From: Oscillospiraceae bacterium
GTDB taxonomy: Bacteria; Bacillota; Clostridia; Oscillospirales; CAG-272
Direction: 5' to 3'
Assembly (NCBI GenBank): GCA_015064855.1
Contig: SVRK01000001.1
Location: 14,196 to 78,195 of the forward strand
Length of the DNA stretch: 64,000 bases
Both the position numbers and the translations under genes were made by a program. Of the stretch, positions 9,181 through 43,074 are shown piece by piece; position 1 is the stretch's first letter, and each line of letters begins with the position of its first letter. The notes under the pieces are model-generated. The model was given only the letters and a program-made list of their open reading frames with translations. It was not told the origin of the DNA and searched no databases.

Positions 9181-9190
9181 GAGGATGAGT

Positions 9191-11920: not shown

Positions 11921-13792
11921 ATGAGCTTAGCAATCAACAACTTATTTAACTTTGGTAGGAGCCTCCCTGCGCCTTTTGATTCTCTTGGAAGCAAGAAGGT
12001 CAAGGTTACGTCTATGTATGGCGAAGGCACCGAATCAACCCTCTGCGCAACCGTTATCAAGGCGATTCACGCAATCTGTCATTGTATGGACGGTAGCGGA
12101 GACGGCGCGGTAGGTGTTCTCGACAAGAAGACGGTTGCCGAATACAAATCCTCGGCAGGACCGAATCAGTATCATCTCGTAGTATACGACAGCACCAATG
12201 GACAGGTACTCGCAAGCGTATATGACAAGGATACGGAGGTAATGGAAACCTATACCGCAAACCCATCCGCAAGAGACGGTTCAGCCATTATGATGGCACT
12301 CTTTCCCGTCCTTATGAACGACAAGGAATTCAGCGATAAATTCGACGAGTATTTCAAGGAATACAGCGCGGGATATCCTGATATGAATCACGCAAAAGAG
12401 TGCATGGCATATATGTGTGACAACGCATACCGCCGTGTTAAAAACGAAACCATTCCTCAGCATATCAAGGTCGAGATTGAAAGATCCGGCAATCTGATGC
12501 GTATTTCCCCTTCGCATATTGACTCCGGAACGTTTACACCAAAGGATGTCATTGCGGGAGAGTTTTCAATCTTTGCCAGTGTCGGAGCCGCTACCGTTAT
12601 TGGAAGCGCTTCAGTCATTGTTGAGCACTCGGATTTCGAAGGACAGTATGTGCTTCAGCCGAGAACCTTCAATCCAGTAGAACAGTCCCTTATCCCCAAG
12701 CTTCCTTCTTGGTATATCATTCCGCAGGAGGTGGTGGATATTTGCAAACACGCTAAGGCAACCACAGGCAAGCCCACACAAATGCGCAACTTCCTTCTGA
12801 GAGGTCCCGCAGGCACGGGTAAGACAATGGGTGCTAAAGCGATTGCAGCCGGACTTGGTTTGCCTTATATGAAGTATACCTGCTCGGCGGGAACAGAGAT
12901 CTTCGATTTCATCGGTCAGGTCTTTCCCAACACAGACGGATTCTCTTCAAGTAATCCTCAGATTGCAAGCGAACGCGAAATGCTCAAGGCAATGGGTGGA
13001 ATCAATTATGCAAACGTAGCTAAGCTTATGTCCCTTCCTGATCTTGATGATATGGATTATGATCCTGCAGGTGTTTATCACCGCCTTACGGGAATCGAGA
13101 AGCCGACAGCATCCTCCCAGGATTGTATGGCGGTCGTTCTTGATATTGTAACCGCAAAGGTGCAGGAACTCTCGAAGAGCGACGAAAGCGCTACGGAAAA
13201 AGGACAGTCGTTTAGATACGTAGAAACCGATTTCATCAATGCACTCCGCAATGGTTTCGTTGTTGAAATTCAGGAACCCACCACTATCGTTCAGCCGGGT
13301 GTTATGGTTGGCCTTAACTCCCTCCTTGAACAGGATGGCTCAATCACGCTCCCTACCGGAGAGATCATTAAGCGTCATCCCGATGCTGTTGTCGTTGTAA
13401 CTACTAACGTCAGCTACGAGGGGTGCCGAGGAATGAACCAGTCTATTATCGACAGAATGAGTCTGGTACGTGACGTAGAGCTTCCCGAACCCGAGGTGAT
13501 GGTACAGAGAGCGATGAGCGTTACCGGAGCTACCGATGAGCTGATGGTTTCCGATATGGTAAAGGTCGTAAACGATATGGCTGATTACTGCAGAAAGAAC
13601 AGCATCACCGACGGTTCTGTTGGTATGCGTAGTTTAATCGACTGGATTGTAAGTACAGAGATCACGGGAGACGTTTATTCCTCTGCTTTGCAAACTATTG
13701 TTAGCAAAGCAACGGCTGATGAGGATGACCGTGAGGCTCTTATTGCTACGGTCCTTGAGCCGATCTTTGCAAGAGGTCGCAAAAAGAAATAA
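11921..13792 (+). CDS. MoxR/CbbQ-like AAA+ ATPase with a roughly 270-aa unknown N-terminal region
   Basis: Walker A is FLLRGPAGTGKTMGAKAIA, Walker B-like is GFVVEIQEPT, and AVVVVTTN is present. It is paired with a downstream VWA protein. Confidence 0.75.
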   Translation: MSLAINNLFNFGRSLPAPFDSLGSKKVKVTSMYGEGTESTLCATVIKAIHAICHCMDGSGDGAVGVLDKKTVAEYKSSAGPNQYHLVVYDSTNGQVLASVYDKDTEVMETYTANPSARDGSAIMMALFPVLMNDKEFSDKFDEYFKEYSAGYPDMNHAKECMAYMCDNAYRRVKNETIPQHIKVEIERSGNLMRISPSHIDSGTFTPKDVIAGEFSIFASVGAATVIGSASVIVEHSDFEGQYVLQPRTFNPVEQSLIPKLPSWYIIPQEVVDICKHAKATTGKPTQMRNFLLRGPAGTGKTMGAKAIAAGLGLPYMKYTCSAGTEIFDFIGQVFPNTDGFSSSNPQIASEREMLKAMGGINYANVAKLMSLPDLDDMDYDPAGVYHRLTGIEKPTASSQDCMAVVLDIVTAKVQELSKSDESATEKGQSFRYVETDFINALRNGFVVEIQEPTTIVQPGVMVGLNSLLEQDGSITLPTGEIIKRHPDAVVVVTTNVSYEGCRGMNQSIIDRMSLVRDVELPEPEVMVQRAMSVTGATDELMVSDMVKVVNDMADYCRKNSITDGSVGMRSLIDWIVSTEITGDVYSSALQTIVSKATADEDDREALIATVLEPIFARGRKKK

Positions 13793-13819
13793 ATAATCAA
13801 GAAGGAGGTTGTACCCTAT

Positions 13820-16096
13820 ATGGCAAGGGTGAATCACAAATTAGTTAAGCAGCGTCTAAACGAAAAACGCAGCAAAATAACCGACCGACAGTTCTTTTCT
13901 TCAAGGCTTCTTGCAGGCCATTTTGAGGATATGGCGGCGGCGCAGACAAGACGGTATAAGTATAACCGTCGCATTCACGTGCAGCTTTTTTGGAAGCCAA
14001 AGGAAGATTTTGTGGCCGCTACAAACAACGAGTACATCCGAATCAACTCCGGTAACAAGATGGTAACGACCGTAAAAGGACGTGAAAATCGGTACTGGAT
14101 CGTATGCGGACTGTTTGCTCATGAAGCCGGGCACGTACTTTATACCGACTTCCTTGCGCAGCAAAGCTACTGCAACTACTTCTTGAGAAAGAAGTGGTAT
14201 CCTTTGGCACCTCCCCTCACCACCCTCGATCAGAAGATAGCTGAGCGTGAGATCTGGGATTACGTTGATGACGATCCCAGAAACGCTGAGGTCCTTCTGC
14301 AGGTAGCAATGACGATTAACAACGTAATTGAGGACGGTTACATTGAGAATCGTGTTCTTAACGCATTCCCGGGTTCGCTCGGGTATGCGCTTGAGACCTT
14401 GCGCGAAAAGCACTTCTGTGATATGCCGACAGTAACGGAGCTTATCGAGCAGGAAAACGATGGCGAATGTCATATTTTCCAGAGCATTATGCAGCTTATG
14501 CTTTCTTACGCAAAGTTCGGTGAAATCAAGTATGGTGAAGAACCTCTCAGCGACGAGAGAATTCAGACCGTATTCAGCCTGATTGGAGATATCGATTCGG
14601 CTCTATTCAATCGTTCTGGCAAGGAAAGGTTAATGGCGACCAATGCGGTTCTTATCAAATGCTGGAAGTACGTTAAGGATTTCTGCGAATATAGCAAACA
14701 AAAGCAGGATGAAGCTGCCGCAAACGGTTCCACAATGAGTATTTCCGAGAAGCTTGCCGAACTGTTCGGTAAGATGATTGGTGGCTCTGCAGGTGCTTCC
14801 GGAAGCGGAAGCCCTGTTCCCGAAGCATCCGGTGTTCCTATTCCTTCCGCAACAGCAGCAAATCGTTCCAAAACCAAGAATGATGCAGGCGAAAAAGCAG
14901 ACGAAGAGGAATCTGGATCCGGCGCAGCAGGGGCAGAAACACCCGAAGAGGCACCTTCAGGCGAGTCTGGAGAAAAATCTTCAAATTCATCTGAGTCTGG
15001 AGAGGAATCAGGCGGACAGGATGGTGACGAAGGCGATGGTGGCAAGGATGATGTAACATCGTCTGAAGGCAAACGAATTCCGTATCACCAGACCGAGAGT
15101 GTTGAAACCAGCGGCAGCGGAAAAATGGAGCGAAACGATACCTATGAGCGCGAAATGTACGACAAAGCCGCAAGTGATATCGAGAGAGTTCTTGAGAGGA
15201 TGGCAGAAAAAGCCGCTTGTCAGGAGCTTGAAAACGAAAGACTTCGCGAGCTGAACGAGGTTGCGCAGAACATATCTTATGGCGATGTACATCAAGGGAT
15301 AGACATCTGTGTGAATCGAATCAACGACGTAGATACCGAGCTAATAGATCAGTACAATTACATTGCAGCTCCTCTTCTGACCATTTCCAGACAGTTGCAG
15401 CGCAGTCTTGTGCGGCAGCTTAAGGAAAGCAGACGCGGAGGAAAGCAAACCGGTCTTATGATGGGTAGACGCTTGGATTCACATGCGTTGCATAGAAACG
15501 ATGGGAAGATCTTTTATAAGAACGCCCTTCCGAACGAAATCCCCGAGCTGTGTGTTGGTCTTCTGATTGACGAATCCGGTTCTATGGGGTGTAGCGACAG
15601 ATGCACCTATGCGAGAGCTGCAGCAATCATTCTTTATGACTTCTGCAGGAGCCTTGAGATACCTGTTATGGTATACGGCCATTCAACGTCAGGCGGTGAG
15701 GTCGAGCTGTTTTCTTATGCAGAATTCGAAAGCTACGACAATGATGACAAATATCGCATGATGGACATTGGAGCCAGAGGCAGTAACCGTGACGGTGCCG
15801 CACTTCGATTCGTTGCAGAACAAGTATCAAAGCGCCCAGAGGAGATAAAGCTTCTCATATTGATTTCTGACGGTCAGCCCGCGCATTACGGTTATTCCGG
15901 TACTGCTGCAGAGGAAGATTTGAGAGGAATCAGAAAAGAATATATGAAAAAAGGAATCCTCTTTATCGCGGCTGCTATTGGAGACGATAAGCAGAATATC
16001 GAGCGAATTTATGAGGACTCGTTCCTTGACATAACAGATCTCAATCAGTTGCCCGTAAAGCTTACCGCAGTTGTTAAGCGTCATATTCGGGTATAA
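13820..16096 (+). CDS. CobT-like protein: N-terminal HExxH (zincin-like) region, acidic disordered linker, C-terminal VWA domain
   Basis: HEAGH is encoded at 14120-14134. The Ser/Gly/Glu-rich linker is encoded at about 14790-15070. The MIDAS-like motif is GLLIDESGSMG, and LLILISDGQPA is also present. Confidence 0.75.
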   Translation: MARVNHKLVKQRLNEKRSKITDRQFFSSRLLAGHFEDMAAAQTRRYKYNRRIHVQLFWKPKEDFVAATNNEYIRINSGNKMVTTVKGRENRYWIVCGLFAHEAGHVLYTDFLAQQSYCNYFLRKKWYPLAPPLTTLDQKIAEREIWDYVDDDPRNAEVLLQVAMTINNVIEDGYIENRVLNAFPGSLGYALETLREKHFCDMPTVTELIEQENDGECHIFQSIMQLMLSYAKFGEIKYGEEPLSDERIQTVFSLIGDIDSALFNRSGKERLMATNAVLIKCWKYVKDFCEYSKQKQDEAAANGSTMSISEKLAELFGKMIGGSAGASGSGSPVPEASGVPIPSATAANRSKTKNDAGEKADEEESGSGAAGAETPEEAPSGESGEKSSNSSESGEESGGQDGDEGDGGKDDVTSSEGKRIPYHQTESVETSGSGKMERNDTYEREMYDKAASDIERVLERMAEKAACQELENERLRELNEVAQNISYGDVHQGIDICVNRINDVDTELIDQYNYIAAPLLTISRQLQRSLVRQLKESRRGGKQTGLMMGRRLDSHALHRNDGKIFYKNALPNEIPELCVGLLIDESGSMGCSDRCTYARAAAIILYDFCRSLEIPVMVYGHSTSGGEVELFSYAEFESYDNDDKYRMMDIGARGSNRDGAALRFVAEQVSKRPEEIKLLILISDGQPAHYGYSGTAAEEDLRGIRKEYMKKGILFIAAAIGDDKQNIERIYEDSFLDITDLNQLPVKLTAVVKRHIRV

Positions 16097-18064: not shown

Positions 18065-18982
18065 ATGGATAGAAAACTTACAAGCATCGTATCCTATCCC
18101 GAGAGAGGCGAAGGCGGTAACAACCGTTACCGTGGCAATTGCTCTCCCAAGCTTATTGAGGATCTCATCGGTTTCTTCAGACCGACTGAGATTTGCGACT
18201 ATATGTGCGGCAGTGGGACGACCAAGGCTGCTGCAGATAAATGCGGTATCCAAAGTAAGCTCTACGACCTGCACAGCGGGTTCGATATAATGAATAGCGA
18301 CATCAAAGAGCGACCGGAATTCATATTCTGGCATCCTCCATACTGGGATATCATCGTTTATTCGGACGTTATGTATAAGGCATCTGAAGTTCAGAGTCAG
18401 TATGGGTACGATCCGCGCAAGCTGGATCTCTCCAGAATTCCAAGCTGGGAGAAGTTTGTTGAAGCAATGAATTACGCGATGATGAAGCAGTTCAGCTCCC
18501 TTGAAAAAGGAGGTCGTATGGCAGTCCTGATGGGCGATATCAAGAAACGTGGCAAGCTCTACAGTATGCTTTCTGAGATTGTAAAGCCGGGAACGCTTGA
18601 GAACATTATCATCAAAGCGCAGCACAATTGCTTCTCGGATAACACTCAGTACAGTGGCAAATTCATTCCAATACTTCACGAGTATGTGATGATTGTCCGT
18701 AAGGATTCGCCCCTTCTTGTTCCGGTTATCGTTGCAAAAGAGATGCAGGTTGATACAAGGGATATGGCAGGAGCTACGTGGAGAGATGTGGTTGCCGCAG
18801 TCCTTGAGGAGTGCTCCGAAGCTGTAACGCTTACATATCTCTATGAGCAGATAGAGTCTCATAAGAAAGCCAAGGCAAATAAACACTGGCGTGAGAAGAT
18901 CCGTCAGACTTTGCAAATCAATCCAAATCATTTCGCCCACACCGACCGTGGTATGTGGGTGCTCAGAAGAAAGGAAGCGTAA
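18065..18982 (+). CDS. Putative orphan DNA methyltransferase (motif I then motif IV, gamma-like order)
   Basis: The AdoMet motif is CDYMCGSGTTKAAA. About 40 aa later comes FIFWHPPYWDII, an xPPY catalytic motif with an unusual His. No restriction enzyme partner is seen. Confidence 0.55.
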   Translation: MDRKLTSIVSYPERGEGGNNRYRGNCSPKLIEDLIGFFRPTEICDYMCGSGTTKAAADKCGIQSKLYDLHSGFDIMNSDIKERPEFIFWHPPYWDIIVYSDVMYKASEVQSQYGYDPRKLDLSRIPSWEKFVEAMNYAMMKQFSSLEKGGRMAVLMGDIKKRGKLYSMLSEIVKPGTLENIIIKAQHNCFSDNTQYSGKFIPILHEYVMIVRKDSPLLVPVIVAKEMQVDTRDMAGATWRDVVAAVLEECSEAVTLTYLYEQIESHKKAKANKHWREKIRQTLQINPNHFAHTDRGMWVLRRKEA

Positions 18983-27974: not shown

Positions 27975-28187
27975 TTGACACATTCTGGAAACAAGTGTAT
28001 AATATAAGAGTCAACAACGCTAAAAAGATGATCTCTTGACCAGCAACGTTAGTGTCTTCCGCAACATCGAGCATCGGTGATAAAAGTCAGGATAATCTAA
28101 AGTTTCAGCGGTCGTAAAAACTTTTCGTAGCGTTTGGATGATACAATAATTAAACGCAGTGATCAGAAAAGACCACTGCGTTTTGTT
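27975..28187 (+). ncRNA. Candidate roughly 180-nt non-coding transcript (promoter to terminator, no ORF)
   Basis: Promoter TTGACA (27975-27980), 17 nt, TATAAT (27998-28003). The terminator is AAACGCAGTG (28152-28161) with CACTGCGTTT (28174-28183) plus a T-rich tail. No start codon with a usable ORF lies in between. Confidence 0.35.
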
Positions 28188-28534
28188 TATGCAACATCTT
28201 GAGTAAAAAGATAAGTGAAATCAAAAAAGCAGAATAGAGAAATTTGATTGATATCTTCTTCGTCGTCTTTGAGCATCGATATGTCAGAAGAGTTGACTTC
28301 ATATTTCTCCATCATACATTCTTCAGCTACTTCAATAGCCCGTGCAATGTCCCTTAATGTTTCAAAGCATTCAGGAGGAGCATAACGATAGTCATCCCAC
28401 GAAAAATAGTCATCTCCACAACAGGGCGCCTCTTTTTCAAGCAATTCCGAGTACCTTTCTTTAAGATCATCAAGTCTCCAAATAAGTTGCTGATCAGCAG
28501 AAGGATAACTTAAGTCAATATTGTTTTCGGTCAT
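28187..28534 (-). CDS. Small acidic hypothetical protein
   Basis: GAGGAGG lies upstream. It follows the AAA+ gene by 19 nt. Confidence 0.5.
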   Translation of the reverse strand: MTENNIDLSYPSADQQLIWRLDDLKERYSELLEKEAPCCGDDYFSWDDYRYAPPECFETLRDIARAIEVAEECMMEKYEVNSSDISMLKDDEEDINQISLFCFFDFTYLFTQDVA

Positions 28535-28553: not shown

Positions 28554-30560
28554 TTAACAGAAACCGATCTTGCGTTTCTGAGTGTCTCGAGTAACAGGAG
28601 GAGCAATTATGTCATCAGCAGTGAGGGTAAAGACATCTCTTTCTGTTATAGATTCAAACCCTTTTTCCAAAAGTCGAGAAGCCTGATTCATTTTGGATTG
28701 TTCGAAAATATTGCGAACATATCTGCCGTTTCCAAAATCACTTTGGCTTCGCGCAACTTCGAAGATTGATTCCAGTTTGCTCATAGCTTCCGATGTAATT
28801 GTCATACCGGAACCGCGAGCAATCAATCCAGCAATTCTGCAGAGCTCTTGGGACGAATAATCCGCGAAAGGAACATGGAAGGCTATTCTGGACCGCAATC
28901 CGGGATTTTTGTTTAGAAATCCTTCCATCTTATCGGGATATCCAGCAAAAATAACGATAACCTCCTCTCGATGATTTTCCATTTCTTGAACGATTGTGTT
29001 GATTGCTTCATCTCCAAAGCATCCGTCTCGATCATCAACAAGAGAGTATGCTTCATCAATAAACAAAACTCCACCCTTTGCTGCCTTGAATTTTGATTGA
29101 ACTGTCTGCGCAGTCCATCCAACGTATTTCGCAATTAGATCTCCACGTCCAACTTCTACAAGCTGGCCTTTAGATAGCAAATTGTTTTCACGCATAATTT
29201 GTGCGAACAGTCTTGCTACCGTTGTTTTTGCTGTGCCAGGATTGCCCGTGAAAATCATGTGCATTGCAGGATGATCTTCTTTAATCCCTCGGTCTCGAAA
29301 CAACTTCTGCATTTTGTAGTAATTAAGAGCTTTATTGATTACCTTTTTTGCTTCTTCAAGGCCAATCATTTCGTCAAGCTCACTATATGCAGAACCCTTG
29401 GGCTTCGATGTTGCGATTGTCTGCTCGGCAGCAGTAATACAACTGTATTGTGGGTATACTGCACTGCGCAACTTTCCGTTGTACCACTCCTCAAAAAAAC
29501 CTTTAAGCTCAGTTGCAAGATATGTTTTATCTTCTTCGAGCTTTACAAAGAGTTTTTTGTCAACCCGAACATGCTTTCCTTTTGCCATTGAAACGAGGTA
29601 TTCCTTCGCTCGATCTGCTTTGACCAGATCCTCTTTAAGTTCAACAATAGAAATACTTCCCAAATTTTCGAAGAAGCGATCTTTGGCTTTAGAGCATTCA
29701 CGTGAGAGACAGAAAACGGTTAATACTTCATTTCTATAGCGTTTTGCTGCTTCACAAAGTATTTCAACGGTTCCTGTGTCACCAAACGCAACGTCTACAT
29801 CGTCGCGATCATCGTTATCAAGATAACGAACAACCACAGCCCCGCCGATACTTGCCTGATAGAGCGCATCATACGACATTGTTGAGAATTGTTCACCAGG
29901 TCTAATGTCACAATAAGTATATCTTTGACTCTCCAATCTGCCATTGGAATAAAGAGCATCCAAGACAATTTTATAAACTTCTCGTCGTGTTTCGCGGTCA
30001 TCAGTCTGAACCATATAATGAACTGGATGCCCTGACGCTTTTGATTGCTTTTTCCCGGCATAGATTCTTTCCAACTCAGGCAGTAGCGTTTCGTTCATAA
30101 GATATTTCTCGGATAAAGAAACGAGAGTAGGCTTGTCTCGGGAAACGGAAATGTTTTCGCCATACTCTACACTTTGACGGCCATCAATTTTATCAAGATT
30201 ATATTTTTCCAGAATTGCATCGTCATCATCAATATAATCCTCACAATGTGAAGAGTTTAATAGCGATTTTAGATTGCTAAACGTAACTTCTGAAATTGTC
30301 AAATCCCTTAGCGGCAATCCGATGTAGTTCAAATAACGATGAACATAGTTTGATATTGTAAGAACGGAATTGGAAATAACTCCAATTGTAACAACCCCTT
30401 CGGATGAATCGGATACGAAATAAAAAACATTCTTACAGTATTGCGTGTTAAACATTTCACTTTTAGTTGCAATTTTTCTTCTTGCTTCTCTTCGAGCACG
30501 TCTGTCTTCCTCCTCGACAACGGCATTTATCATTACTCCCTGAATCTTATAGAACAACAT
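28554..30560 (-). CDS. SpoVK/CbxX-type AAA+ ATPase with a roughly 400-aa N-terminal region
   Basis: Motifs HMIFTGNPGTAKTTVARLFAQIM, GVLFIDEAYSL and PGLRSRIAFHVPFADY. The N-terminal part may be a degenerate second AAA-like module. Confidence 0.8.
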   Translation of the reverse strand: MLFYKIQGVMINAVVEEEDRRARREARRKIATKSEMFNTQYCKNVFYFVSDSSEGVVTIGVISNSVLTISNYVHRYLNYIGLPLRDLTISEVTFSNLKSLLNSSHCEDYIDDDDAILEKYNLDKIDGRQSVEYGENISVSRDKPTLVSLSEKYLMNETLLPELERIYAGKKQSKASGHPVHYMVQTDDRETRREVYKIVLDALYSNGRLESQRYTYCDIRPGEQFSTMSYDALYQASIGGAVVVRYLDNDDRDDVDVAFGDTGTVEILCEAAKRYRNEVLTVFCLSRECSKAKDRFFENLGSISIVELKEDLVKADRAKEYLVSMAKGKHVRVDKKLFVKLEEDKTYLATELKGFFEEWYNGKLRSAVYPQYSCITAAEQTIATSKPKGSAYSELDEMIGLEEAKKVINKALNYYKMQKLFRDRGIKEDHPAMHMIFTGNPGTAKTTVARLFAQIMRENNLLSKGQLVEVGRGDLIAKYVGWTAQTVQSKFKAAKGGVLFIDEAYSLVDDRDGCFGDEAINTIVQEMENHREEVIVIFAGYPDKMEGFLNKNPGLRSRIAFHVPFADYSSQELCRIAGLIARGSGMTITSEAMSKLESIFEVARSQSDFGNGRYVRNIFEQSKMNQASRLLEKGFESITERDVFTLTADDIIAPPVTRDTQKRKIGFC

Positions 30561-30642
30561 TTTGATAAACCTCCTTTGGATTTCTTGAGTTAATTATAAC
30601 AAAAGGAATGTTCCAAAAGTGGTGCATAACACTTTTTGTGTA

Positions 30643-30673
30643 CTAAAAAAGGAACCGCTTTTTACGGTTCCTT
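30643..30673 (-). terminator. Intrinsic terminator after the WYL gene
   Basis: AAGGAACCG (30649-30657) pairs with CGGTTCCTT (30665-30673), with a T-run on the minus strand. Confidence 0.65.
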
Positions 30674-30680
30674 GGAAATT

Positions 30681-31667
30681 TTAGTTGTATTTAACAAGCC
30701 CTTGCGTTAGAGCTTCTTTTATTCTATCTCGTAAATGCTTCGGCGCAGTTATTTCCACATGGTTCAAGTATTGCATTGCCCAGTGTTCCATTGCATTTGG
30801 ACTTGCGAAGATAGATACCTTAATTTTACCATCCATATCGGGGATTTTCGATAATGTAACACTCTTCCCGAACCAGTCGAATATCTGATCAATGATCGCT
30901 TCCTCTGCAACAAACTCGATTCGCTCTGGTTTATCAGTATACATATATGGCATCGTTGTAGCAATTTGCTTATAATCTATACCGTTTTCGTATCCTGGAA
31001 CAGATGTCAACGGCGTTAGCGGCTTGTCATAAACCTTTATCTTTGTGATACGATCAACTCTATGAAATACAATGTGTTTCCAATAATCACTGTAACCCAT
31101 AATATAATAGCGTTGGTTATGCAGAATAAGGTGGTAGGGACTCAGACGTTGAAAGGATGATTTTTGAAGCTTTCCATCAACATCGAATTTGTTGTACTCA
31201 TATTGAATTTGCTTTCCGTCTTCAATTGCAGCGTCAATGATTTCTATGTTATAGAATAACGAGGAGTTTTCGCTTTTGCTCCAATCGTTGACAGAATACA
31301 CATTACGTATATGCGAGCGAAAATACTTGTTAGAGAGTCCAGACAGTTTCTCTATTAAGTCAGCAGAATGCTTTGCAGTAATATATTTGCTCTGCAAAAC
31401 TCCATCGATAAGTAACTTAAGCTCTGAGTCTTCAAAATCTCTTGCGCTTATATAAGTACCTGCTCGGCGTGATTCAATATCACATCCCGCCTCTTTTAAC
31501 AAGGAGAGATTTCGGCTTATAGCCTTGCGCTCGATGATAATTCCATAATCATTTTTAAGGTGTTCTGCAATGTCATCTTGTGTTAAAGGGTGATCATAGT
31601 CACTGTATTTATGGAGTATTTGCCATATTCTGATGAGGGCTAATTTTTTTGGTTCAAAGCTTTCCAT
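30681..31667 (-). CDS. WYL-domain transcriptional regulator (HTH-WYL-WCX architecture)
   Basis: The HTH is LALIRIWQILHKYSDYDHPLTQDDIAEHL. The WYL region is LSPYHLILHNQRYYIMGY...FHRVDRITKIKV. Confidence 0.8.
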   Translation of the reverse strand: MESFEPKKLALIRIWQILHKYSDYDHPLTQDDIAEHLKNDYGIIIERKAISRNLSLLKEAGCDIESRRAGTYISARDFEDSELKLLIDGVLQSKYITAKHSADLIEKLSGLSNKYFRSHIRNVYSVNDWSKSENSSLFYNIEIIDAAIEDGKQIQYEYNKFDVDGKLQKSSFQRLSPYHLILHNQRYYIMGYSDYWKHIVFHRVDRITKIKVYDKPLTPLTSVPGYENGIDYKQIATTMPYMYTDKPERIEFVAEEAIIDQIFDWFGKSVTLSKIPDMDGKIKVSIFASPNAMEHWAMQYLNHVEITAPKHLRDRIKEALTQGLVKYN

Positions 31668-31679
31668 GAAAAGCCTCCT

Positions 31680-32660
31680 TTATGAATAGTAACGTTTCAA
31701 GTATTCTTGGTGATCCACTGGAATATCAAGGGATTCAGCTAATTCCTTTGCAGACATATAAATGATTTTGATGCCTGCATTACAGTTATTATCAAAAATT
31801 GCGGGAATTTCACACCGATGCATAGTATCTATAAAGAGTTGAGCTTCGTAGCGTTCTTCCGAAAGTGCGCTTTGATACTCCCATCGCGTATCCTCATCAT
31901 CTATAAATGCTGCCGGGAACTCATTTACAACATTGGTCAAGATGTACCAGTCATACTTTCCAGCCATAGTTCTTCCAGGATCTACTTTTTCTAAAGCAGA
32001 TCTTGTGACAAACGAGGCGTAGTTGTACATTGCAAGCGTGTGCTTAAACATTTGCGATGCATCATATCTACGGAAGGATACATCTTGAAGTAGGTGAGCC
32101 CAATTTGAGAACATCTCAAATGCATCTTTTGGAAAAGGAACTGCGGCTCTGTCAGGAGTGAAGTAGTATCGTTCCATAAAGTAACTCTTGCCAAGAGCTT
32201 TTGGTGATTCGAGCCATTCAAGGTTTTTCATTTCAAAAAACAAAGCGTTTCTATTAACACTATCGCTTAAAAACGCATCTACGTTTGCCGGCATATTTCC
32301 ATAGGCACGAGTGAGGAGTTGTTTCTCATATTCAACCGTGTATGTTCCTTGAGGGAGAATGCCTTCGGGCAAGATGCTTACCGAGTCATTCCCAAAAAGA
32401 TTAAACGTCATTGCCGATGAAGAAACTATGCTTCCCATTTTAGGCGGAAGTGTATAGGTCCTGCCAAATTTAGTTATGGTGCTTTCCTTTGTTTCACTAC
32501 CGTCTCCACGATTGTATTCTGCGATGGTTTGGGAAGACATCGGGCAAAATAAATTATTTCTATAGTCCTTGTAATAAAACGGACGGTGAGAATTCTGCAA
32601 ACTTGTCGGTATTGGATGCCTTTGCAAAATTGATTGCGTAATTTTCTCTCTAAGTGACAT
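31680..32660 (-). CDS. Putative PD-(D/E)XK-fold nuclease
   Basis: The internal ATG at 32660 follows AAGGAG. Motifs are SSSAMTFNLFG and NVDAFLSDSVNRNALFFEMKNLEW (D...ExK spacing). It is coupled to the WYL gene by a 12-nt gap containing an SD. Confidence 0.5.
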   Translation of the reverse strand: MSLREKITQSILQRHPIPTSLQNSHRPFYYKDYRNNLFCPMSSQTIAEYNRGDGSETKESTITKFGRTYTLPPKMGSIVSSSAMTFNLFGNDSVSILPEGILPQGTYTVEYEKQLLTRAYGNMPANVDAFLSDSVNRNALFFEMKNLEWLESPKALGKSYFMERYYFTPDRAAVPFPKDAFEMFSNWAHLLQDVSFRRYDASQMFKHTLAMYNYASFVTRSALEKVDPGRTMAGKYDWYILTNVVNEFPAAFIDDEDTRWEYQSALSEERYEAQLFIDTMHRCEIPAIFDNNCNAGIKIIYMSAKELAESLDIPVDHQEYLKRYYS

Positions 32661-32675
32661 AACAATCTCCTTATT

Positions 32676-32757
32676 CTTGTATTTGTGTTTATTATAATAC
32701 AAGTAATGGGACTTATTTGGTACATTACATTGTAACACAAAAAAGGAGTTTTGACAA
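32676..32757 (-). promoter_or_regulatory. Promoter plus 8-bp inverted-repeat operator candidate for the nuclease/WYL operon
   Basis: On the minus strand: TTGTCA (complement of 32752-32757), 17 nt, TGtTACAAT (-10 is the complement of 32729-32734). The inverted repeat CTTGTATT (32676-32683) / AATACAAG (32696-32703) lies between the promoter and the SD. Confidence 0.55.
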
Positions 32758-32762
32758 GGTAT

Positions 32763-32807
32763 AACACAAAAAAGAAAGCGCAGCGATTACATTTCGCCGC
32801 GCTTTCT
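32763..32807 (-). terminator. Intrinsic terminator overlapping the 3-prime end of the upstream CDS
   Basis: AGAAAGCGC (32773-32781) pairs with GCGCTTTCT (32799-32807), with a T-run on the minus strand. Confidence 0.6.
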
Positions 32808-33224
32808 TCTTTCTTCGAGCTCTCCTAAGTACTTTTCTTCAAGCTCATCTGTCCAAACCTTTATTTGGGAGAAGAGTGTTTTTCTTTGATCATCCATATT
32901 ATCAAAAAAATACTCAACTGATACGCCCTTGTATCCGAATATTGCTAAAATTCTGTAATCATACTCTTCAAGTGTTTCTTCGAGAAAAGCGTGGTATCCC
33001 ATTTCATTATGTGATGCTGGATCATAGTCTGAAAAACCGGAGAATCCATCTATTGCTTCTTCAAAATACATTTCAGGTGTCATATTGAATTTTTCAATAT
33101 TTTCAATTAGCTTACAGTGAAGCCCCGCATCATCCTTAGCTTCTACACAAGCCATCATTTCGCCACGCGGATTCAGATAAAACCAAGTAAATATTGATGT
33201 GTACATTTTGTTATCCTCAATCAT
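32787..33224 (-). CDS. Hypothetical acidic protein
   Basis: It has its own extended -10 promoter (minus strand TTGAAA, 17 nt, TGgTATAAT, around 33232-33262). I recognised no motif. Confidence 0.5.
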   Translation of the reverse strand: MIEDNKMYTSIFTWFYLNPRGEMMACVEAKDDAGLHCKLIENIEKFNMTPEMYFEEAIDGFSGFSDYDPASHNEMGYHAFLEETLEEYDYRILAIFGYKGVSVEYFFDNMDDQRKTLFSQIKVWTDELEEKYLGELEERRKRGEM

Positions 33225-33267: not shown

Positions 33268-33299
33268 CAACAACAAAACGGCGATCCATGACCGCCGTT
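33268..33299 (-). terminator. Intrinsic terminator after the XRE gene
   Basis: AACGGCG (33277-33283) pairs with CGCCGTT (33293-33299), with a T-rich tail on the minus strand. Confidence 0.55.
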
Positions 33300-33304
33300 C
33301 AAAA

Positions 33305-33631
33305 TTATTTTCTATCAAATTCAATCATCGCACCAACAACTTTGTAAATCCTGTCGCGTGATGCAGGATCTAACTTTGCTATTTCCTCAGTGAGAGTGGA
33401 TGATTTGATATCATAGCCAGTAGTTAACACATCTGCGAGAAGCTGGTCTGCAGAAACTTCAAGCACGTTTGCAATCTGAATAAAGGTTTCAAGTTTAGGA
33501 ACCTTTTCGCCTCTTTCTATCATACCGGTATAGGTGACACTCAAACCAATTTTCTCAGCAAAGTCCTCCTGTCTCCAGCCTTTATGCTCGCGGAATTTGC
33601 GTATGCGCTTTCCAATTGATGAAGTATTCAT
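33305..33631 (-). CDS. XRE-family HTH transcriptional regulator
   Basis: IGKRIRKFREHKGWRQEDFAEKIGLSVTYTGMIERGEKVP. Confidence 0.8.
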   Translation of the reverse strand: MNTSSIGKRIRKFREHKGWRQEDFAEKIGLSVTYTGMIERGEKVPKLETFIQIANVLEVSADQLLADVLTTGYDIKSSTLTEEIAKLDPASRDRIYKVVGAMIEFDRK

Positions 33632-33818
33632 ATCACACCTCGTAAAAATAATGGTTATTGTCCTTAACTAATAGTATAGATTATTCCGAACGATCAATAC
33701 AGAATATATTTGGATAATACCATAACTAATGGTTGATATTTGGTGCATTTTATGATATACTGACAATTGATAAGAAATGTGGTATAATAAAAACAATCAT
33801 ACAATAGGAGGATTTAAC

Positions 33819-34352
33819 ATGGGAACAGTAGCATTCACAGGTTATAGGCCAAACAAGTTACCGTTTGTTGAAGATAAGAAGGATGAGTTGTACGTTGCGT
33901 TTCGTCAAAAGCTAAGACAAGTAATAGAACGACTTGTCGAGCGAGGATACAATGAGTTTGTTTCTGGCGTTGCTATGGGGTTTGATACTTGGGTGGCAGA
34001 AGATGTTATTGCCATCAAAAAGACGAATCCTGATATCAGACTCGAATGCGCTATACCTTGTCCCAATCAAGATAAGAATTGGCCCTTGGGAGATAAACTG
34101 CGCCGTAAGAAGATACTTCATCATGCTGATAGCAAGCCAGTTATTTGCGAGCATTACAGCGATCAATGTTTCCACATTCGAAACAGATATATGGTAGACA
34201 AAGCAGAAGTCGTTGTTTGTTGCTATGATGGGCAGAAAGGCGGAACGGCATACACGGTAAACTATGCGCTTAGGGCAGATAAGATAGTTATTCAGATCAA
34301 CCCGAATAATGCTTCTGTAACCATTATCAGCAGAAGAAATTTCGAAAATTAA
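33819..34352 (+). CDS. YpsA/YoqJ-like SLOG-family protein (DUF1273)
   Basis: The ATG at 33819 follows AGGAGG. Motifs VAFTGYRPNKLPF and FVSGVAMGFDTWVAEDVI. There are tandem extended -10 promoters at 33733-33761 and 33760-33788. Confidence 0.65.
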   Translation: MGTVAFTGYRPNKLPFVEDKKDELYVAFRQKLRQVIERLVERGYNEFVSGVAMGFDTWVAEDVIAIKKTNPDIRLECAIPCPNQDKNWPLGDKLRRKKILHHADSKPVICEHYSDQCFHIRNRYMVDKAEVVVCCYDGQKGGTAYTVNYALRADKIVIQINPNNASVTIISRRNFEN

Positions 34353-38163: not shown

Positions 38164-39795
38164 ATGCATCAAGTGCCTTGCAACGTCACATACCGTGCCT
38201 TAGCATATTACCGCTTGTCAAAGGAAGACAAAGGCAAGACGGTTAGTGACAGTATAGAAAACCAGCGGATGCTTATTCAGGAATACGTGAGCAAGCACGA
38301 TGAGATCGAGCTGGTTGGTGAATTTTACGATGACGGTTATTCCGGAACCAACTATAGACGTCCCGGATTCCAGGATCTTCTTGAGAAAGTCGAACAAGGA
38401 GAGATAGATTGTATCATCGTAAAGGATCTCTCGCGCCTTGGGCGTGAATATATTGAGACCGGAAGGTTCATTGAAGAACGCTTTCCGGCTATGGGAATTC
38501 GATTCATTGCTGTAACGGACGATTACGACAGTAACGCACCCAAGCAGTCTGATGATATCTTGATTCCTGTAAAAAACTTAATGAATGAAACCTATTGCCG
38601 TGATTTGTCCAACAAACTGCGTCGTCAGTTTATGGTACAAAGAAGCAATGGTGAGTGCCTTGCAGCCTTCGCAAGCTACGGATATCGTAAATCACCGGAA
38701 GATAAGCATAAGCTTATTATCGATGAGATTGCGGCCGAAGTTGTGCGGGGCATTTTTTATTCCAAATTACAAGGTTACAGCCAACAGGATATTGCTTCAA
38801 TGCTTACCTCTCAGGGCATTATGTGTCCCGCAGAATACAAGAAGCAAAACGGCATGAAATACAAGTCTGGCTTTAGTTCGACCGAAACCGGGCAATGGAG
38901 CCACATGGCTGTTACGAGAATCCTCAAAAACCGTCTTTACATTGGTGAGCTCATACAAGGCGTAAGAGGCAAGCCGAATTTTAAGGTAAAAGAGGTCAAA
39001 AAGCGTAAGCCAGAAGAATGGATTGTAGTTCCAAATAATCACGAGCCGATCATAGATCAAAAAGTCTTTGATATAGTACAAAGAATGCTTGAACGTGATA
39101 CGAGACGTTCGCCCGAGCAGGAGCTTGTTTTTCCTCTATCTGGAATGATTTTCTGCCCGGATTGCGGCAGAAATATTCGCATTCGCAGCGTTACAAGATA
39201 TAAGAGAAAATTCTACTATTATACCTGCTCAACTTATAAAAACGGCAGAGGTTGTACGAGCCACAGTATAGAAAAGTCAAAGCTCGAGGATATCGTATAT
39301 CGAGCAATAATGGTTCAAATCAATACAGTTGTTGACATCAATTCCATTTTGGATACGATTAAGAACTGCGACTTGCGTGTAGTTCGTATGAAAAAGCTGA
39401 AGGCTCAAATATCGCAGAAGGAAGCCGAACTGGAAAAATACAAGGAGTTCAAAAACAGACTTCTGGAGGCACTCAAAGATCAGCTCATCGAACGCGATGA
39501 ATATATTCAGATGCGTGACAAATACAGGGCGCAGGAAGAAGAGTGCCTTGAAGCAATCAAGGTGCTTCAGGATAAGGCTATTGAGCTTGAGTCTGAGGCG
39601 AATTTGGATAGCTCTTGGGTGGAGCAATATGCAAAGTTCCAGAACGTCCAAACGCTCACTCGTGAAATGGTTGTGTCTTTGATTGACAAAGTTATTGTAC
39701 ACGAAGGCAACGTCATAGAAATAGTCTTCAATTACAGAGACGAAATTGCCTATGTCGAAGAGCTTATCTCCGAAAGCAAAAAGGAGGTGAGCTAA
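38164..39795 (+). CDS. Large serine recombinase 1
   Basis: Motifs ALAYYRLSKEDKGK, FYDDGYSGTNYRRPGF and IIVKDLSRLGREY. It has a zinc-ribbon CPDCGRNIRIRS...YYTCSTYKNGRGC and a C-terminal coiled coil. Confidence 0.9.
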   Translation: MHQVPCNVTYRALAYYRLSKEDKGKTVSDSIENQRMLIQEYVSKHDEIELVGEFYDDGYSGTNYRRPGFQDLLEKVEQGEIDCIIVKDLSRLGREYIETGRFIEERFPAMGIRFIAVTDDYDSNAPKQSDDILIPVKNLMNETYCRDLSNKLRRQFMVQRSNGECLAAFASYGYRKSPEDKHKLIIDEIAAEVVRGIFYSKLQGYSQQDIASMLTSQGIMCPAEYKKQNGMKYKSGFSSTETGQWSHMAVTRILKNRLYIGELIQGVRGKPNFKVKEVKKRKPEEWIVVPNNHEPIIDQKVFDIVQRMLERDTRRSPEQELVFPLSGMIFCPDCGRNIRIRSVTRYKRKFYYYTCSTYKNGRGCTSHSIEKSKLEDIVYRAIMVQINTVVDINSILDTIKNCDLRVVRMKKLKAQISQKEAELEKYKEFKNRLLEALKDQLIERDEYIQMRDKYRAQEEECLEAIKVLQDKAIELESEANLDSSWVEQYAKFQNVQTLTREMVVSLIDKVIVHEGNVIEIVFNYRDEIAYVEELISESKKEVS

Positions 39796-41507
39796 TGGCA
39801 CGTAAAAGTAGGTTTGTAGATGTAAGCACTATTGAAGCCATTGAAACAGTGGTTTGGAAAACGGCATTTTATTTGCGTTTGTCAGATGAAGATGGCGAAA
39901 ACGTAGAACAAAACTCTTTGGGCAACCAACGCAAAATCTGTCAGGCTTACTTCAATAAGCTTGAAGACGTTGAGCTTGTCAGAGTATTCAGCGACAACGG
40001 TTATACCGGAATGAATTATGATCGTCCCGACTTCAACGCACTTTACGATGCAGTGATGAATGGTGAGATCAACTGTATTATCGTCAAGGATGTGTCTCGC
40101 TTTGGAAGGCACTATATAATGACCAGTGAATTCTTGCAAAGACTCTTTCCGAGTATGGGAGTTCGGTTTATTTCCGTAAATGACGATTATGACAGCCTTA
40201 ATCCTAAATCGGATGTGGAAGGTCTCTTACTGCCTTTCAAGATGATCGTAAACGATTCCTACGTTAAGGATATTGCCAAAAAGATACGTTCGAGCATTAC
40301 TTCAAAAATGAATGCCGGAGAGTATTTGCCATCAGCAAGTAGCATTCTGTACGGATACATTCGTAATCCTGAAATGAATACACTTGATATTGATGCAGAA
40401 GCGGCTCCGGTTGTTGTTCGGATATTTGAAATGAGAGCTGATGGCATCTCTTTCAACCAAATTGCAGATACTCTTAACAAAGAAGGAGTTCCATCCCCAG
40501 GAAGACTTCGTTATATGCGGGGAGTAACTCTCCATCCGAGATACGCAACTTGTCAGTGGTCGCGCTCGACGATCAGAAAATTCGTATCAGAGCCAACGTA
40601 CCTTGGCCAAAGAATTCACGGAAAAATCAAGAGAGATAAGCTGGGTGCCAAGAAGACAAAGCGTGATAGGTCGGAATGGCAGATTGTTGAGAATAGCCAT
40701 CCTGCAATCATTTCGCAGGAACTGTATGATAGAGTTCAGTTCGTTAACGAAGCCGAGCTTGAAAAACAGTCTCACTATTTCAGAAGAGCTCCGGTCACAG
40801 GTTATCGTGAAATTTTCCGCGATAAGCTATTCTGCGGGGATTGCGGATCAAGAATGATCTCTATCCGTTTTAATCACAGAATCAGTGACAATAAGCCATC
40901 TGAGATAAGGTACCAATGCAATGAGTTCCTTTACTCTGGTAGAACAAGATGCTTTAATCACTACACGAGAGAAGACGTTCTTGTTATGACGGTAAAGAAC
41001 GTTATTAACGGTCAGATTAAGGTAGCCGCGAGAATACAAACGGCACTTACGGCTTACAAAAAATCGAAGCGTGGCAATCCGATTGCAGATCAATTACAGG
41101 CAGTAAGATTGCGGCGCAAACAGCTTGAGGTTAAAATCGAAAGGTTAATCGAGGATCTAACTGAGGGCATTATCAACCACGAGGAGTATGAATATGCTAA
41201 AAGAAAATACGCTGACGAATACGATCTCGTTTTGATTGAGGAACAAGAAATCGAAAAACGCTTTAAGTCACAGCAGGAATCAGTTGACAGAGCTGAATTA
41301 TGGGTTGAATCCCTGAAAGCTTATAGTATGGTTCCAAAGCTTGACAAAGCAATCGTCGATCTGCTCATTGAAAAAATCATAGTGTTTCCGGATAATACTT
41401 TTCATATTGTCTTGAACTTTAAGGATCCTTACAAAGATTTTGCGTTCCTCTCAGACTATTTGAAGACAGGAGGAAGATCTAATGGCAGATCTAAAAAGGC
41501 GATTTGA
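39795..41507 (+). CDS. Large serine recombinase 2
   Basis: Motifs AFYLRLSDEDGEN, FSDNGYTGMNYDRPDF, IIVKDVSRFGRHY and CGDCGSRMISIR...YQCNEFLYSGRTRC. The ATG overlaps the previous TAA. Confidence 0.9.
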   Translation: MARKSRFVDVSTIEAIETVVWKTAFYLRLSDEDGENVEQNSLGNQRKICQAYFNKLEDVELVRVFSDNGYTGMNYDRPDFNALYDAVMNGEINCIIVKDVSRFGRHYIMTSEFLQRLFPSMGVRFISVNDDYDSLNPKSDVEGLLLPFKMIVNDSYVKDIAKKIRSSITSKMNAGEYLPSASSILYGYIRNPEMNTLDIDAEAAPVVVRIFEMRADGISFNQIADTLNKEGVPSPGRLRYMRGVTLHPRYATCQWSRSTIRKFVSEPTYLGQRIHGKIKRDKLGAKKTKRDRSEWQIVENSHPAIISQELYDRVQFVNEAELEKQSHYFRRAPVTGYREIFRDKLFCGDCGSRMISIRFNHRISDNKPSEIRYQCNEFLYSGRTRCFNHYTREDVLVMTVKNVINGQIKVAARIQTALTAYKKSKRGNPIADQLQAVRLRRKQLEVKIERLIEDLTEGIINHEEYEYAKRKYADEYDLVLIEEQEIEKRFKSQQESVDRAELWVESLKAYSMVPKLDKAIVDLLIEKIIVFPDNTFHIVLNFKDPYKDFAFLSDYLKTGGRSNGRSKKAI

Positions 41508-43074
41508 TTATTTAAGACTATCTTTGGAAGACGGAGATGTGGCAAGCGGCAACTCAAACGAGAGCCAGAGCATTGAGTCCCAAAGAAAATGTTGTCGTCA
41601 GTTTCGTGCAGAGTATCCAGACTTAATGGATGGCTTTGAAGAAATTGTTGATGACGGTTACTCCGGTACACACTTTGATAGGCCGGGAATAAAACGGCTC
41701 CTCAGACTTGTGGAGTTGGATATGGTGGAAGTTATTGTTGTTAGGGATCTTTCTCGTTTTGCAAGAAACTTCCTTGAGGCTGGATACTATATGGAGTTTG
41801 TGTTTCCCGCCCATGGAGTTCGTTTCATATCTATTAACGATGGATATGACAGCGCTTCGTATACTGATTCCAGCGCTGCGCTTCATATTGCGATCAAGAA
41901 CCTCGTCAATCAGATGTATAGCCGCGATATTTCGAAAAAGATCAAGAGTGCGGTCGATCTGAAAAAAATGAGAGGCGAATTTGTATATGGCACGGCCCCA
42001 TACGGATATAAAAAAGGCGCAAAGAAGAACACCATCGAGGTGGATCCAATTGCTGCCCCAACAGTATTCAGACTATTCAGTATGGCTTGTAACGGCAAGA
42101 CCATTACGGAAATTGCGAGAACTTTTAACGAGGAGAAGATTCCAACACCATCTATGCACCTTTCTGCAGTACGAAGCAAGAAGGTAAAGGTTTATCCAAT
42201 ATGGAGCTTCGAATCCGTTAGAAACATTCTGACAAATCGTATCTATACTGGAGATACTGTTCCGTTTAAGTCACACGTTGTACGTATCGGCAGTGACAAT
42301 GTGAAGTATATTCCCGAGGAAGAAAGGATTATCATACCCAATACCCACGAGGCAATTATCACTCGAGAGATGTACGAAAAAGCACAGCTTGTGATTAAGA
42401 GCACAAAGAAATCTCCGTCCAGTGGCATAAGAAGTCCATTGGCCACTTACCTTGTATGCAGTTGTTGCGGCAATCGTCTACAAAAAGGTAAACCAACAAA
42501 CAAAACATTCCTGTGTGCTACAGCGCGTTATGCTCCAGATAAAGAGTGTAAGCAGATTCGATGTGATGACCGTAAGATGCAGGAAATACTGCTCAAGGCA
42601 GTCCGCCAACAGTGTATGATGATGGATACTCGCATCAAGCATATCAAGGCTACAGCAAAAACTGTCAGAAGTGAAATTGAGATGCTGATGGCCGATATTC
42701 GTCTACAGCGTAGACTTGCGGAAAATGCTAAAGCTTCTAAGATGCGACTCTACGAGGATTATGTTGAGGGAGTAATAAACAAAGAAGAATACTCCACAAA
42801 GAAAGTAGAGCTTGCAGAGCAGGAACAGACTGCACTCAAGCAGCTTGAGCTCTTAGAAGCAAACCTTGCCGTGCTCAATTCTAATGTTGACGACAAAGAC
42901 GAGGTGGTAGAGAGTCAAGCCTTGATCGATAAGTATCTTGAGATCACCGAACTTACAGAGCCGTTAATGAGAGAACTCTTCAAAAAAATAATTGTTTATC
43001 CGGACGGCTCCATAAATATCGTTTGGAATTTCAGGGATATGACGGATGGCTCAAAAACAACCACTGTAATCTAA
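41482..43074 (+). CDS. Large serine recombinase 3
   Basis: Motifs FDYLRLSLEDGDV, IVDDGYSGTHFDRPGI, IVVRDLSRFARNF and CSCCGNRLQKG...FLCATARYAPDKEC. It overlaps recombinase 2 by 26 nt. Confidence 0.9.
   Translation: MADLKRRFDYLRLSLEDGDVASGNSNESQSIESQRKCCRQFRAEYPDLMDGFEEIVDDGYSGTHFDRPGIKRLLRLVELDMVEVIVVRDLSRFARNFLEAGYYMEFVFPAHGVRFISINDGYDSASYTDSSAALHIAIKNLVNQMYSRDISKKIKSAVDLKKMRGEFVYGTAPYGYKKGAKKNTIEVDPIAAPTVFRLFSMACNGKTITEIARTFNEEKIPTPSMHLSAVRSKKVKVYPIWSFESVRNILTNRIYTGDTVPFKSHVVRIGSDNVKYIPEEERIIIPNTHEAIITREMYEKAQLVIKSTKKSPSSGIRSPLATYLVCSCCGNRLQKGKPTNKTFLCATARYAPDKECKQIRCDDRKMQEILLKAVRQQCMMMDTRIKHIKATAKTVRSEIEMLMADIRLQRRLAENAKASKMRLYEDYVEGVINKEEYSTKKVELAEQEQTALKQLELLEANLAVLNSNVDDKDEVVESQALIDKYLEITELTEPLMRELFKKIIVYPDGSINIVWNFRDMTDGSKTTTVI

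Follow-up and report, generated by a model that had tools for sequence, protein, structure and literature searches.

A REase-ARP nuclease gene and a WYL regulator gene form a predicted operon, apparently an exchangeable part of a larger, probable defence locus on a clostridial mobile element

Within a 64-kb stretch of DNA from an Oscillospiraceae bacterium (assembly GCA_015064855.1, contig SVRK01000001.1, positions 14,196 to 78,195; hereafter the window), two adjacent genes on the minus strand encode a predicted nuclease and a transcription factor. The first gene (31680..32660, with its ATG at 32660 and its stop codon at 31682-31680; hereafter the REase gene) codes for a 326-aa protein of the REase-ARP family, predicted to be a PD-(D/E)xK-type nuclease, and is preceded by a Shine-Dalgarno sequence, AAGGAG (32667..32672), located 6 nt 5' of the ATG. 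The second, a 328-aa open reading frame (ORF; 30681..31667), starts 12 nt 3' of the first and codes for a helix-turn-helix (HTH)-WYL-WCX transcription factor; its own Shine-Dalgarno sequence, AGGAGG (31674..31679), lies within the 12-nt intergenic gap. A consensus scan places a promoter, P1, upstream of the pair on the same strand, with the -35 hexamer TTGTCA (32752..32757) and the -10 hexamer TACAAT (32729..32734). Its TTGTCA-17-TACAAT arrangement (32757-32729), with 10 of 12 consensus matches and a TG 5' of the -10, is as proposed in a first-pass annotation made from the sequence alone, and a related locus (L004) shows by eye TTGAAA-17-TATAAT at the equivalent position. An intrinsic terminator, also anticipated, follows the WYL gene at 30649..30673 (10-bp stem with five GC pairs, then a T run). 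The 145-aa ORF upstream of the REase gene has its own promoter (33270-33242, 11 of 12 matches), the best sigma-70 promoter of the region, and a terminator-like hairpin can be seen by eye directly 5' of the REase promoter. The REase and WYL genes thus make up a separate bicistronic unit, and these predicted signals indicate a real two-gene operon.

The 326-aa protein matches the Pfam family REase-ARP (PF22558, 'Restriction Endonuclease associating with ARP') with 31.0 bits against a gathering cut-off of 27, residues 23-216 aligning to positions 21-202 of the 270-position profile, and most of its homologues carry a precomputed PF22558 label. The segments from which a nuclease had first been proposed (SSSAMTFNLFG, NVDAFL and FFEMKNLEW) are all present in the translation, and the D...ExK arrangement read from them is borne out: D128 and E143-x-K145 are invariant in an alignment of 31 homologues reaching down to 26% identity, together with E112, SSSAM80-84, Q203 and H207, and the family is classed in the restriction-endonuclease fold. 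In an AlphaFold2 model (predicted local distance difference test, pLDDT, 96.2; predicted template modelling score, pTM, 0.93), D128 and E143-x-K145 stand on consecutive strands, 124-133 and 138-145, and the order of elements, beta1(E112)-beta2(D128)-beta3(E143xK145)-helix-beta4, fits the PD-(D/E)xK fold. The weak Foldseek matches of the model are mostly to PD-(D/E)xK proteins (HamA, Can2, Cdn1, McrC, Shedu, MunI, DUF2800 and RecE-like). We accept the protein as a PD-(D/E)xK-type nuclease by family and motif, with a consistent fold and a predicted activity.

The nuclease has 92 homologues at E <= 1e-3 in a word-index search and 1457 cluster representatives (50% identity) at the same threshold, and an identical protein is annotated in metagenome-assembled genomes of Ruminococcaceae/Oscillospiraceae. 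It is without a match in NCBIfam and PHROGs, was not found in plasmid and phage collections, and has just three weak relatives in IMG/VR. A profile search of PDB sequences returned only SAP30 (E = 0.46), which we judged spurious. Among the relatives, P0466 and P0471 carry C-terminal HNH_3/NUMOD4 fusions, and P0334, P0359, P0398 and P0410 have N-terminal extensions of 240-370 aa without a Pfam match.

The HTH-WYL-WCX assignment of the second protein is upheld by Pfam for the WYL domain (33.2 bits, cut-off 21.8) and the WCX domain (26.7, cut-off 23.9), while the N-terminal HTH falls below cut-off (residues 16-73; HTH_11 at 18.4 bits against 25, HTH_12 at 15.9). In PADLOC it matches generic CRISPR-associated WYL models only (E = 2.7e-22). 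Its clostridial family, with 3462 homologues at E <= 1e-20, is far larger than that of the REase as counted by the word index (92 at E <= 1e-3), and among the 120 WYL homologues listed, all but the top dozen stand at about 70% identity. By domain order alone, the protein has the architecture (HTH, WYL, WCX) of BrxR and CapW, which are winged HTH (wHTH)-WYL-WCX repressors of defence operons (PMC9122601), and CapW is a protein that single-stranded DNA releases from DNA (PMC11662680). The likeness to BrxR and CapW (PMC9122601, PMC9122588, PMC11662680) extends to nuclease or defence neighbours and to a conserved promoter-proximal DNA element. However, the BrxR family as delimited to date is 97% proteobacterial, and its targets are 11-bp inverted repeats whose arms are 5 bp apart (PMC9122601), whereas the conserved element described below resembles two GT(A/C)CC half-sites 11-12 bp apart, and the regulator here is the second gene of its operon.

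To assess the conservation of the pairing from the nuclease side, we used 39 genome and 78 metagenome loci encoding nuclease relatives (L numbers), whose nuclease genes collapse into 73 clusters at 90% identity, and detected WYL genes by an ORF search with the window WYL protein and a hidden Markov model built iteratively from the matches. Twelve clusters are close to the window nuclease (at least 180 bits, roughly 36% identity or more), and a WYL gene directly follows the REase in at least 9 of the 11 that can be evaluated, the two genes being 7-19 nt apart or overlapping by 8 nt; L056 and L009 are without WYL, and L049 ends too soon after the REase. Two further listed clusters are too short on both sides to evaluate. 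In more distant clusters the order can be reversed, with WYL first and overlapping or abutting the REase (L029, L035, L062, L063, L067, L071, L093-97), or WYL lies within 2 kb upstream of the REase (L016, L019, L030, L036). These two arrangements add 12 clusters, bringing the WYL-linked total to about 23 of 73; in the remaining ones, many from Coriobacteriia, WYL was not detectable nearby. The proposed pairing of nuclease and regulator is thus conserved from the nuclease side, in close clusters and, in reversed order, in distant ones.

The 127 immediate neighbours of REase genes belong most commonly to the Pfam families WYL/WCX, calcineurin-like phosphoesterase (Metallophos, 5 of 127), HD (5 of 127) and DUF2779. 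The context is defence-like, as first suspected, and includes GmrSD, a dGTPase-like HD protein, ADP-ribosylglycohydrolase and an HsdR-like helicase. In L016 the order is WYL, a 108-aa gene, ADP-ribosylglycohydrolase, REase, a 77-aa gene and the HsdR-like helicase; L029 also has an ADP-ribosylglycohydrolase, and in L030 an AddB-like gene follows the REase. In L005-7 the REase lies between DUF2779 and WYL, and overlaps the latter by 8 nt.

In the window, the gene directly after WYL is a minus-strand AAA+ gene of 668 aa (28554..30560; Pfam AAA and AAA_lid_6), followed by a 115-aa ORF (28187..28534) and a terminator (28152-28183), the REase occupying the position upstream of WYL. The AAA+ protein matches the NCBIfam models SpoVK, CbbX and EccA with E = 4.5e-78 to 6e-61, all below cut-offs, and in PADLOC gives weak matches to IetA, TRIP13 and PDC-M37B. 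By Foldseek, its C-terminal module resembles CbbX (E = 3.9e-23, 41% identity), and alignments to double-ring AAA+ unfoldases span the entire chain. The N-terminal part of about 390 aa has no Pfam match and includes another alpha/beta tier, which can be aligned to double-ring AAA+ proteins; no independent homologues of it were found, and it is always fused to the AAA+ module. The likeness to the CbbX/SpoVK/EccA branch lies in the C-terminal module, the N-terminal part being extra, and the genomic partner here is a WYL gene rather than Rubisco, sporulation or type VII secretion genes.

The AAA+ gene emerges as the likely constant companion of WYL when the neighbourhood is surveyed from the WYL side. 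We examined the contigs of six WYL homologues of 69-70% identity (P0106, P0154, P0190, P0197, P0200 and P0210; L121-L133), and found a 669-aa CbbX-like AAA+ gene downstream of WYL in all six, its product being 56-59% identical to the window AAA+ protein over the full length. A DUF2779 (Cas4-like) gene lies upstream of WYL in five of the six, adjacent in four and with a 307-aa gene between in L129. Between WYL and the AAA+ gene the recurrent locus has a variable slot, which is either empty or occupied by a GmrSD pair, by a 446-aa protein faintly matching PDDEXK_4, or by a 380-aa or 307-aa protein without a Pfam match; GmrSD fills this slot beside WYL in L005, L121 and L131. In four of the six, a gene for a protein of 273-285 aa comes after the AAA+ gene, in three of them with nothing in between. 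REase-ARP was found beside WYL in none of the six sampled contexts. Nucleases that appear interchangeable near WYL comprise DUF2779, GmrSD pairs, the PDDEXK_4-like protein and REase-ARP. We found no paper mentioning DUF2779 together with WYL, and nothing relevant on DUF2779 alone.

In L121 the AAA+ gene matches that of L122 (11408-12984 in both) at 100% up to residue 165, where a large serine recombinase gene follows, which suggests insertion of a recombinase element within the AAA+ gene. The window was searched for a second AAA+ fragment, a sign of insertion of the element into a chromosomal AAA+ gene as in L121, and none was found. In L124 only a 74-aa ORF stands at the AAA+ position.

A shared sequence element links the promoters of these genes. 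The upstream regions of 11 diverged REase genes, whose flanks are otherwise unrelated, have in common an 18-nt box, ATGYACCAAAAATGTCCC, whose core AT..ACCA.....G.C is invariant and which is followed at a fixed distance by a TGnTAnAAT-like -10 element. In the window, the minus-strand copy before REase-WYL, ATGTACCAAATAAGTCCC (32708..32725; position weight matrix (PWM) score 25.6), is the best operator candidate. This copy follows the -10 of P1 at a distance of 3 nt and covers the -35 region of a second candidate promoter, P2, whose -10 hexamer TATAAT (32691..32696, minus strand, position read from the sequence) falls in the conserved -10 columns and is without the TG in the window copy. Two more copies are found on the same strand, ATGCACCACTTTTGGAAC (30610..30627) in the AAA+ promoter, with a -10 TATAAT (30593-30598) preceded by TGt, and ATGCACCAAATATCAACC (33731..33748; PWM 12.7), with a -10 TATTAT (33714-33719) preceded by TGg, upstream of a minus-strand 108-aa XRE-family HTH gene (33305..33631; Pfam HTH_3, E = 6e-15; terminator 33276-33300). 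From box start to -10 hexamer the offset is 29 nt in all three copies. Of the five occurrences of the 8-mer ATGYACCA in the window, three are on the minus strand in promoter regions.

Outside the window, the box of the AAA+ promoter is in register with those of seven other AAA+ promoters (eight loci aligned), and the top PWM scores fall before REase genes; L005 and L007 have a strong box (PWM 27.1), in L007 on the strand of an XRE homologue. Five DUF2779 promoters carry a variant box, ATGTCCCnAATTTGTCnC, which is duplicated in tandem in L125 and L129. The box ATGYACCAAAAATGTCCC and variants such as GTCCCCTTTTGCGTACA are found before REase, AAA+, DUF2779 and XRE genes in L004-L009, L043-L049, L056 and L121-L133. 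Because the WYL protein is the only DNA-binding protein common to the box-bearing loci, it is the most economical candidate for binding the box. The XRE gene is a possible member of the box regulon.

A different operator had first been suggested, a perfect 8-bp inverted repeat between promoter and Shine-Dalgarno sequence. The repeat is there (CTTGTATT-12 nt-AATACAAG, 32676..32703, minus strand, arms 32696-32703 and 32676-32683), but its role as operator does not hold up, and we rejected it both as operator and as RNA hairpin for its chance frequency, unremarkable fold and lack of sequence conservation. Perfect inverted repeats with arms of 8 bp or more and a loop of 3-20 nt occur in 5.3-7.3% of shuffles of the 100-nt region, and repeats of that quality in 5.2% of all 100-nt windows of the 64 kb; when folded as RNA, the hairpin does not stand out from shuffled sequence (z = -0.93). 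L005-7 have another inverted repeat, ATCAAAACTG/CAGTTTTGAT, at this position, and none was found at the corresponding place in L004. A small inverted repeat, differing in sequence, lies directly 5' of the Shine-Dalgarno sequence in L005-7, L046 and L056, and a hairpin conserved in position may therefore exist in REase upstream regions, though the left arm of the window repeat overlaps the -10 hexamer of P2. The same region contains a perfect 13-nt direct repeat, TAACACAAAAAAG (plus strand), at 32733-32745 and 32762-32774, 29 nt apart and overlapping the upstream promoter; its 8-mer core recurs inverted at 32682-32689, in the spacer of the 8-bp repeat. Opposite the REase promoter, 32588-32809 of the plus strand gives a hit to the Rfam family rli40, a Listeria sRNA (30.6 bits against a gathering threshold of 100, E = 1e-4), which we set aside as probably an AT-rich chance match.

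We lean somewhat towards the view that the bicistronic operon of REase-ARP and wHTH-WYL-WCX is not isolated and is instead joined to a WYL-AAA+ core with interchangeable nucleases, wired together by WYL repression through the box; judged from gene content and promoter sequence, the operon seems to be an exchangeable part of a larger, probable defence locus. In the working scheme, the WYL protein would bind the 18-nt GTACC/GTCCC box over the promoters of the REase-WYL, AAA+-p115 and XRE operons, and this binding would keep all three repressed until a signal bound by the WYL domain freed the protein from DNA. The signal might be single-stranded DNA, by analogy with CapW, or ADP-ribose or a nucleotide product in the relatives linked to ADP-ribosylglycohydrolase. 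The nuclease would then be expressed and would cut invading or cellular DNA, with the AAA+ protein as a potential remodeller or chaperone partner.

Several observations weigh against this reading. On the protein side, Foldseek gave no significant match for the nuclease model, the best in PDB being HamA at E = 0.1 and the best viral one in BFVD reaching E = 0.005 with a template modelling (TM) score of about 0.2; because of this, the fold assignment rests on the Pfam family and the motif. PADLOC-DB v2 returned no family for the nuclease at E <= 0.1, and the description of the REase-ARP family is computational only. Against solved structures, the WYL protein matches neither BrxR nor CapW significantly in sequence; its best matches are 7u02 and 7tzv ('WYL domain-containing protein'), at E = 0.7 and for the WYL-WCX part only, and we take these two to be CapW. 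On the regulatory side, the AAA+ box scores just 6.1 with the REase-derived PWM, and we infer from sequence distribution that the WYL protein, rather than the XRE protein, would be the box binder. A box lying over the -35 region of a -10 hexamer would also suit a PafBC- or DriD-type activator. In L056 and L009 the box precedes the REase with no WYL gene nearby, and the AAA+ gene is absent from L005-7. Finally, in six contigs the WYL gene breaks off after about 27 codons while the REase next to it is intact. This argues against a nuclease that is obligately toxic without an adjacent regulator, and weakens the case for a strict dependence of nuclease on regulator.

These six contigs (L010, with the remaining 67-aa ORF at 9044-9247, L052-L055 and L058), in which WYL homology ends about 80 nt into the gene and the REase is full length, fall in one 90%-identity REase cluster together with L051, L069 and L099, in which WYL is intact.

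A broader version of the preferred reading, which we put forward only tentatively, is that REase-WYL fills one effector slot of an undescribed defence platform that would be very common in gut and rumen Clostridia, made of a fixed WYL sensor-repressor and a two-tier CbbX-like AAA+ core, with interchangeable nucleases on either side of WYL, a shared GTACC/GTCCC box, and copies carried on serine-recombinase elements. The WYL-CbbX-like AAA+ core with swappable nucleases does appear common in gut Clostridia, given the thousands of WYL homologues, and if it is a defence platform, it would offer a useful model of how one sensor-regulator controls exchangeable effectors.

The first-pass annotation had instead suggested that REase and WYL are a complete two-gene module of inducible nuclease defence or abortive infection, a reading that would leave the AAA+ gene as an unrelated neighbour. 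The pair does have its own promoter and a good terminator, REase-WYL occurs without the AAA+ gene in L005-7, and in the distant L067 and L096, where WYL overlaps or abuts the REase that follows it, the next ORF is on the opposite strand (by crude ORF calls). However, the constant partner of WYL is the AAA+ gene, in six of six contexts, where the nuclease position is taken by GmrSD, DUF2779 or proteins without a Pfam match and never by REase-ARP; the WYL family greatly outnumbers the REase family; and the box recurs, in register, in the AAA+ promoter. We regard a self-sufficient pair as unlikely, and the claim of a stand-alone minimal module is not sustained.

PafBC and DriD are WYL proteins that activate the DNA-damage response, and an activator of this type could place the operon in DNA repair or element maintenance, with a nuclease that processes host or element DNA. 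The box covers the -35 region and keeps a constant spacing to the -10, a position used by activators, and the REase is tolerated without an adjacent WYL. Genes that would fit such a role include the Y-family polymerase in the window, the YqaJ exonuclease and RecD2-like genes on the element, and the AddB-like gene after the REase in L030. However, the -10 elements are near consensus and usually of the extended TG type, so that these promoters should fire without an activator; the neighbours of REase and WYL are mainly rapid-turnover defence types (GmrSD, dGTPase-like, ADP-ribosylglycohydrolase, HsdR-like helicase), and gene order and content vary among close relatives, as is typical of defence islands. 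On balance a repair or maintenance function seems improbable to us.

Weaker still is the proposal that the REase is a constitutive, methylase-independent (type IV-like) restriction enzyme and that WYL regulates AAA+-p115 only, like a first-gene BrxR. In its favour, variable effectors and the AAA+ gene lie downstream of WYL in most sampled loci, the REase survives the loss of WYL, and no methyltransferase ranks among the 25 commonest families of REase neighbours, with the nearest in the window 13 kb off. Against it, the strongest and best-conserved box copies stand directly upstream of REase genes, and a 12-nt gap (or the 8-nt overlap of L005-7) implies that REase and WYL are co-transcribed, so that WYL would autoregulate through that very promoter.

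With the larger, box-wired locus as the preferred reading, the operon can be set against known systems. A rapidly evolving REase has been described in conflict systems centred on ADP-ribosylglycohydrolase (ARG), which are predicted to counter viral ADP-ribosylation and whose components are given in section 3.8 of that work (Iyer, Burroughs, Anantharaman, Aravind 2022, PMC9503650). From name and context we infer that PF22558 is this REase, 'ARP' probably standing for ARG and rhodanese-phosphatase; no paper was found under the name REase-ARP. The initial view that the pair belongs to no named system must accordingly be revised, since Pfam names the nuclease family and PMC9503650 predicts a context that matches. 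Relatives of the window nuclease share with the ARG-centred systems WYL, HD and calcineurin-like phosphoesterases, ADP-ribosylglycohydrolase and the HsdR-like helicase, and the one-component regulator of those systems, WYL or Nudix, has its counterpart in the window in the WYL gene, 12 nt downstream of the REase. In contrast, no ADP-ribosylglycohydrolase is found among the scanned gene products of the window (it is present in L016 and L029), no coupled phosphatase (rhodanese-phosphatase, calcineurin-like, HD or HAD) stands beside the pair, and in place of the listed chaperones the window has the CbbX-like AAA+ protein, whose fold suggests a remodeller that may occupy the same functional niche as the 'chaperones' of ARG systems. 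Moreover, PMC9503650 names Actinobacteria, Planctomycetes and Proteobacteria, whereas we deal here with a clostridial mobile element.

The stand-alone PD-(D/E)xK defence nucleases HamA of Hachiman, Shedu SduA, Can2/Cdn1 and McrC share the D...ExK core and make up the commonest class among the weak structural matches of the nuclease, all of them non-significant (best E = 0.1, TM 0.15-0.2); unlike Hachiman, the operon has no helicase partner, and the nuclease has no CARF or SAVED sensor domain. It is similar to type II restriction-modification in its restriction-endonuclease-type catalytic motif, but no methyltransferase is among the 25 commonest families of the 127 neighbours (73 loci), and none lies within 13 kb.

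Current ideas are not overturned by these results, as WYL beside defence nucleases is established, REase-ARP is already in Pfam, and its context has been published from computational work. What is new here is the arrangement, a REase-ARP that lacks ARG and phosphatase neighbours and is joined to a WYL-AAA+ core on a mobile element; REase-ARP thus also occurs without the ADP-ribosylglycohydrolase core of its description, and the window provides a compact and intact REase-ARP operon with a concrete operator candidate, the 18-nt box rather than the inverted repeat.

The mobile element represented by the window encodes three serine recombinases (38164-43074) and carries DUF3854, RecD2-like and YqaJ genes, and the REase-WYL operon is cargo of this element in a gut or rumen Oscillospiraceae/Ruminococcaceae bacterium. 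A HerA/FtsK-like ATPase (96-1886) and a GmrSD-type pair (2891-4603, 4606-6849) are encoded at the start of the window, followed by the Y-family (ImpB/MucB) polymerase (7942-9180), a MoxR-like AAA_5 ATPase with a VWA protein (11921-16096), and an N6/N4 DNA methyltransferase (18065-18982), the nearest methyltransferase to the REase at 13 kb. The 145-aa (32787-33224) and 115-aa (28187-28534) ORFs that flank the operon and the AAA+ gene on the minus strand have no Pfam match, and their homologues are found in near-identical contigs only. Divergent from the box-bearing XRE gene lies a plus-strand YpsA/SLOG-family gene (33777-34352), followed by FUR-like and response-regulator genes; SLOG proteins have been proposed as nucleotide or ADP-ribose binders.

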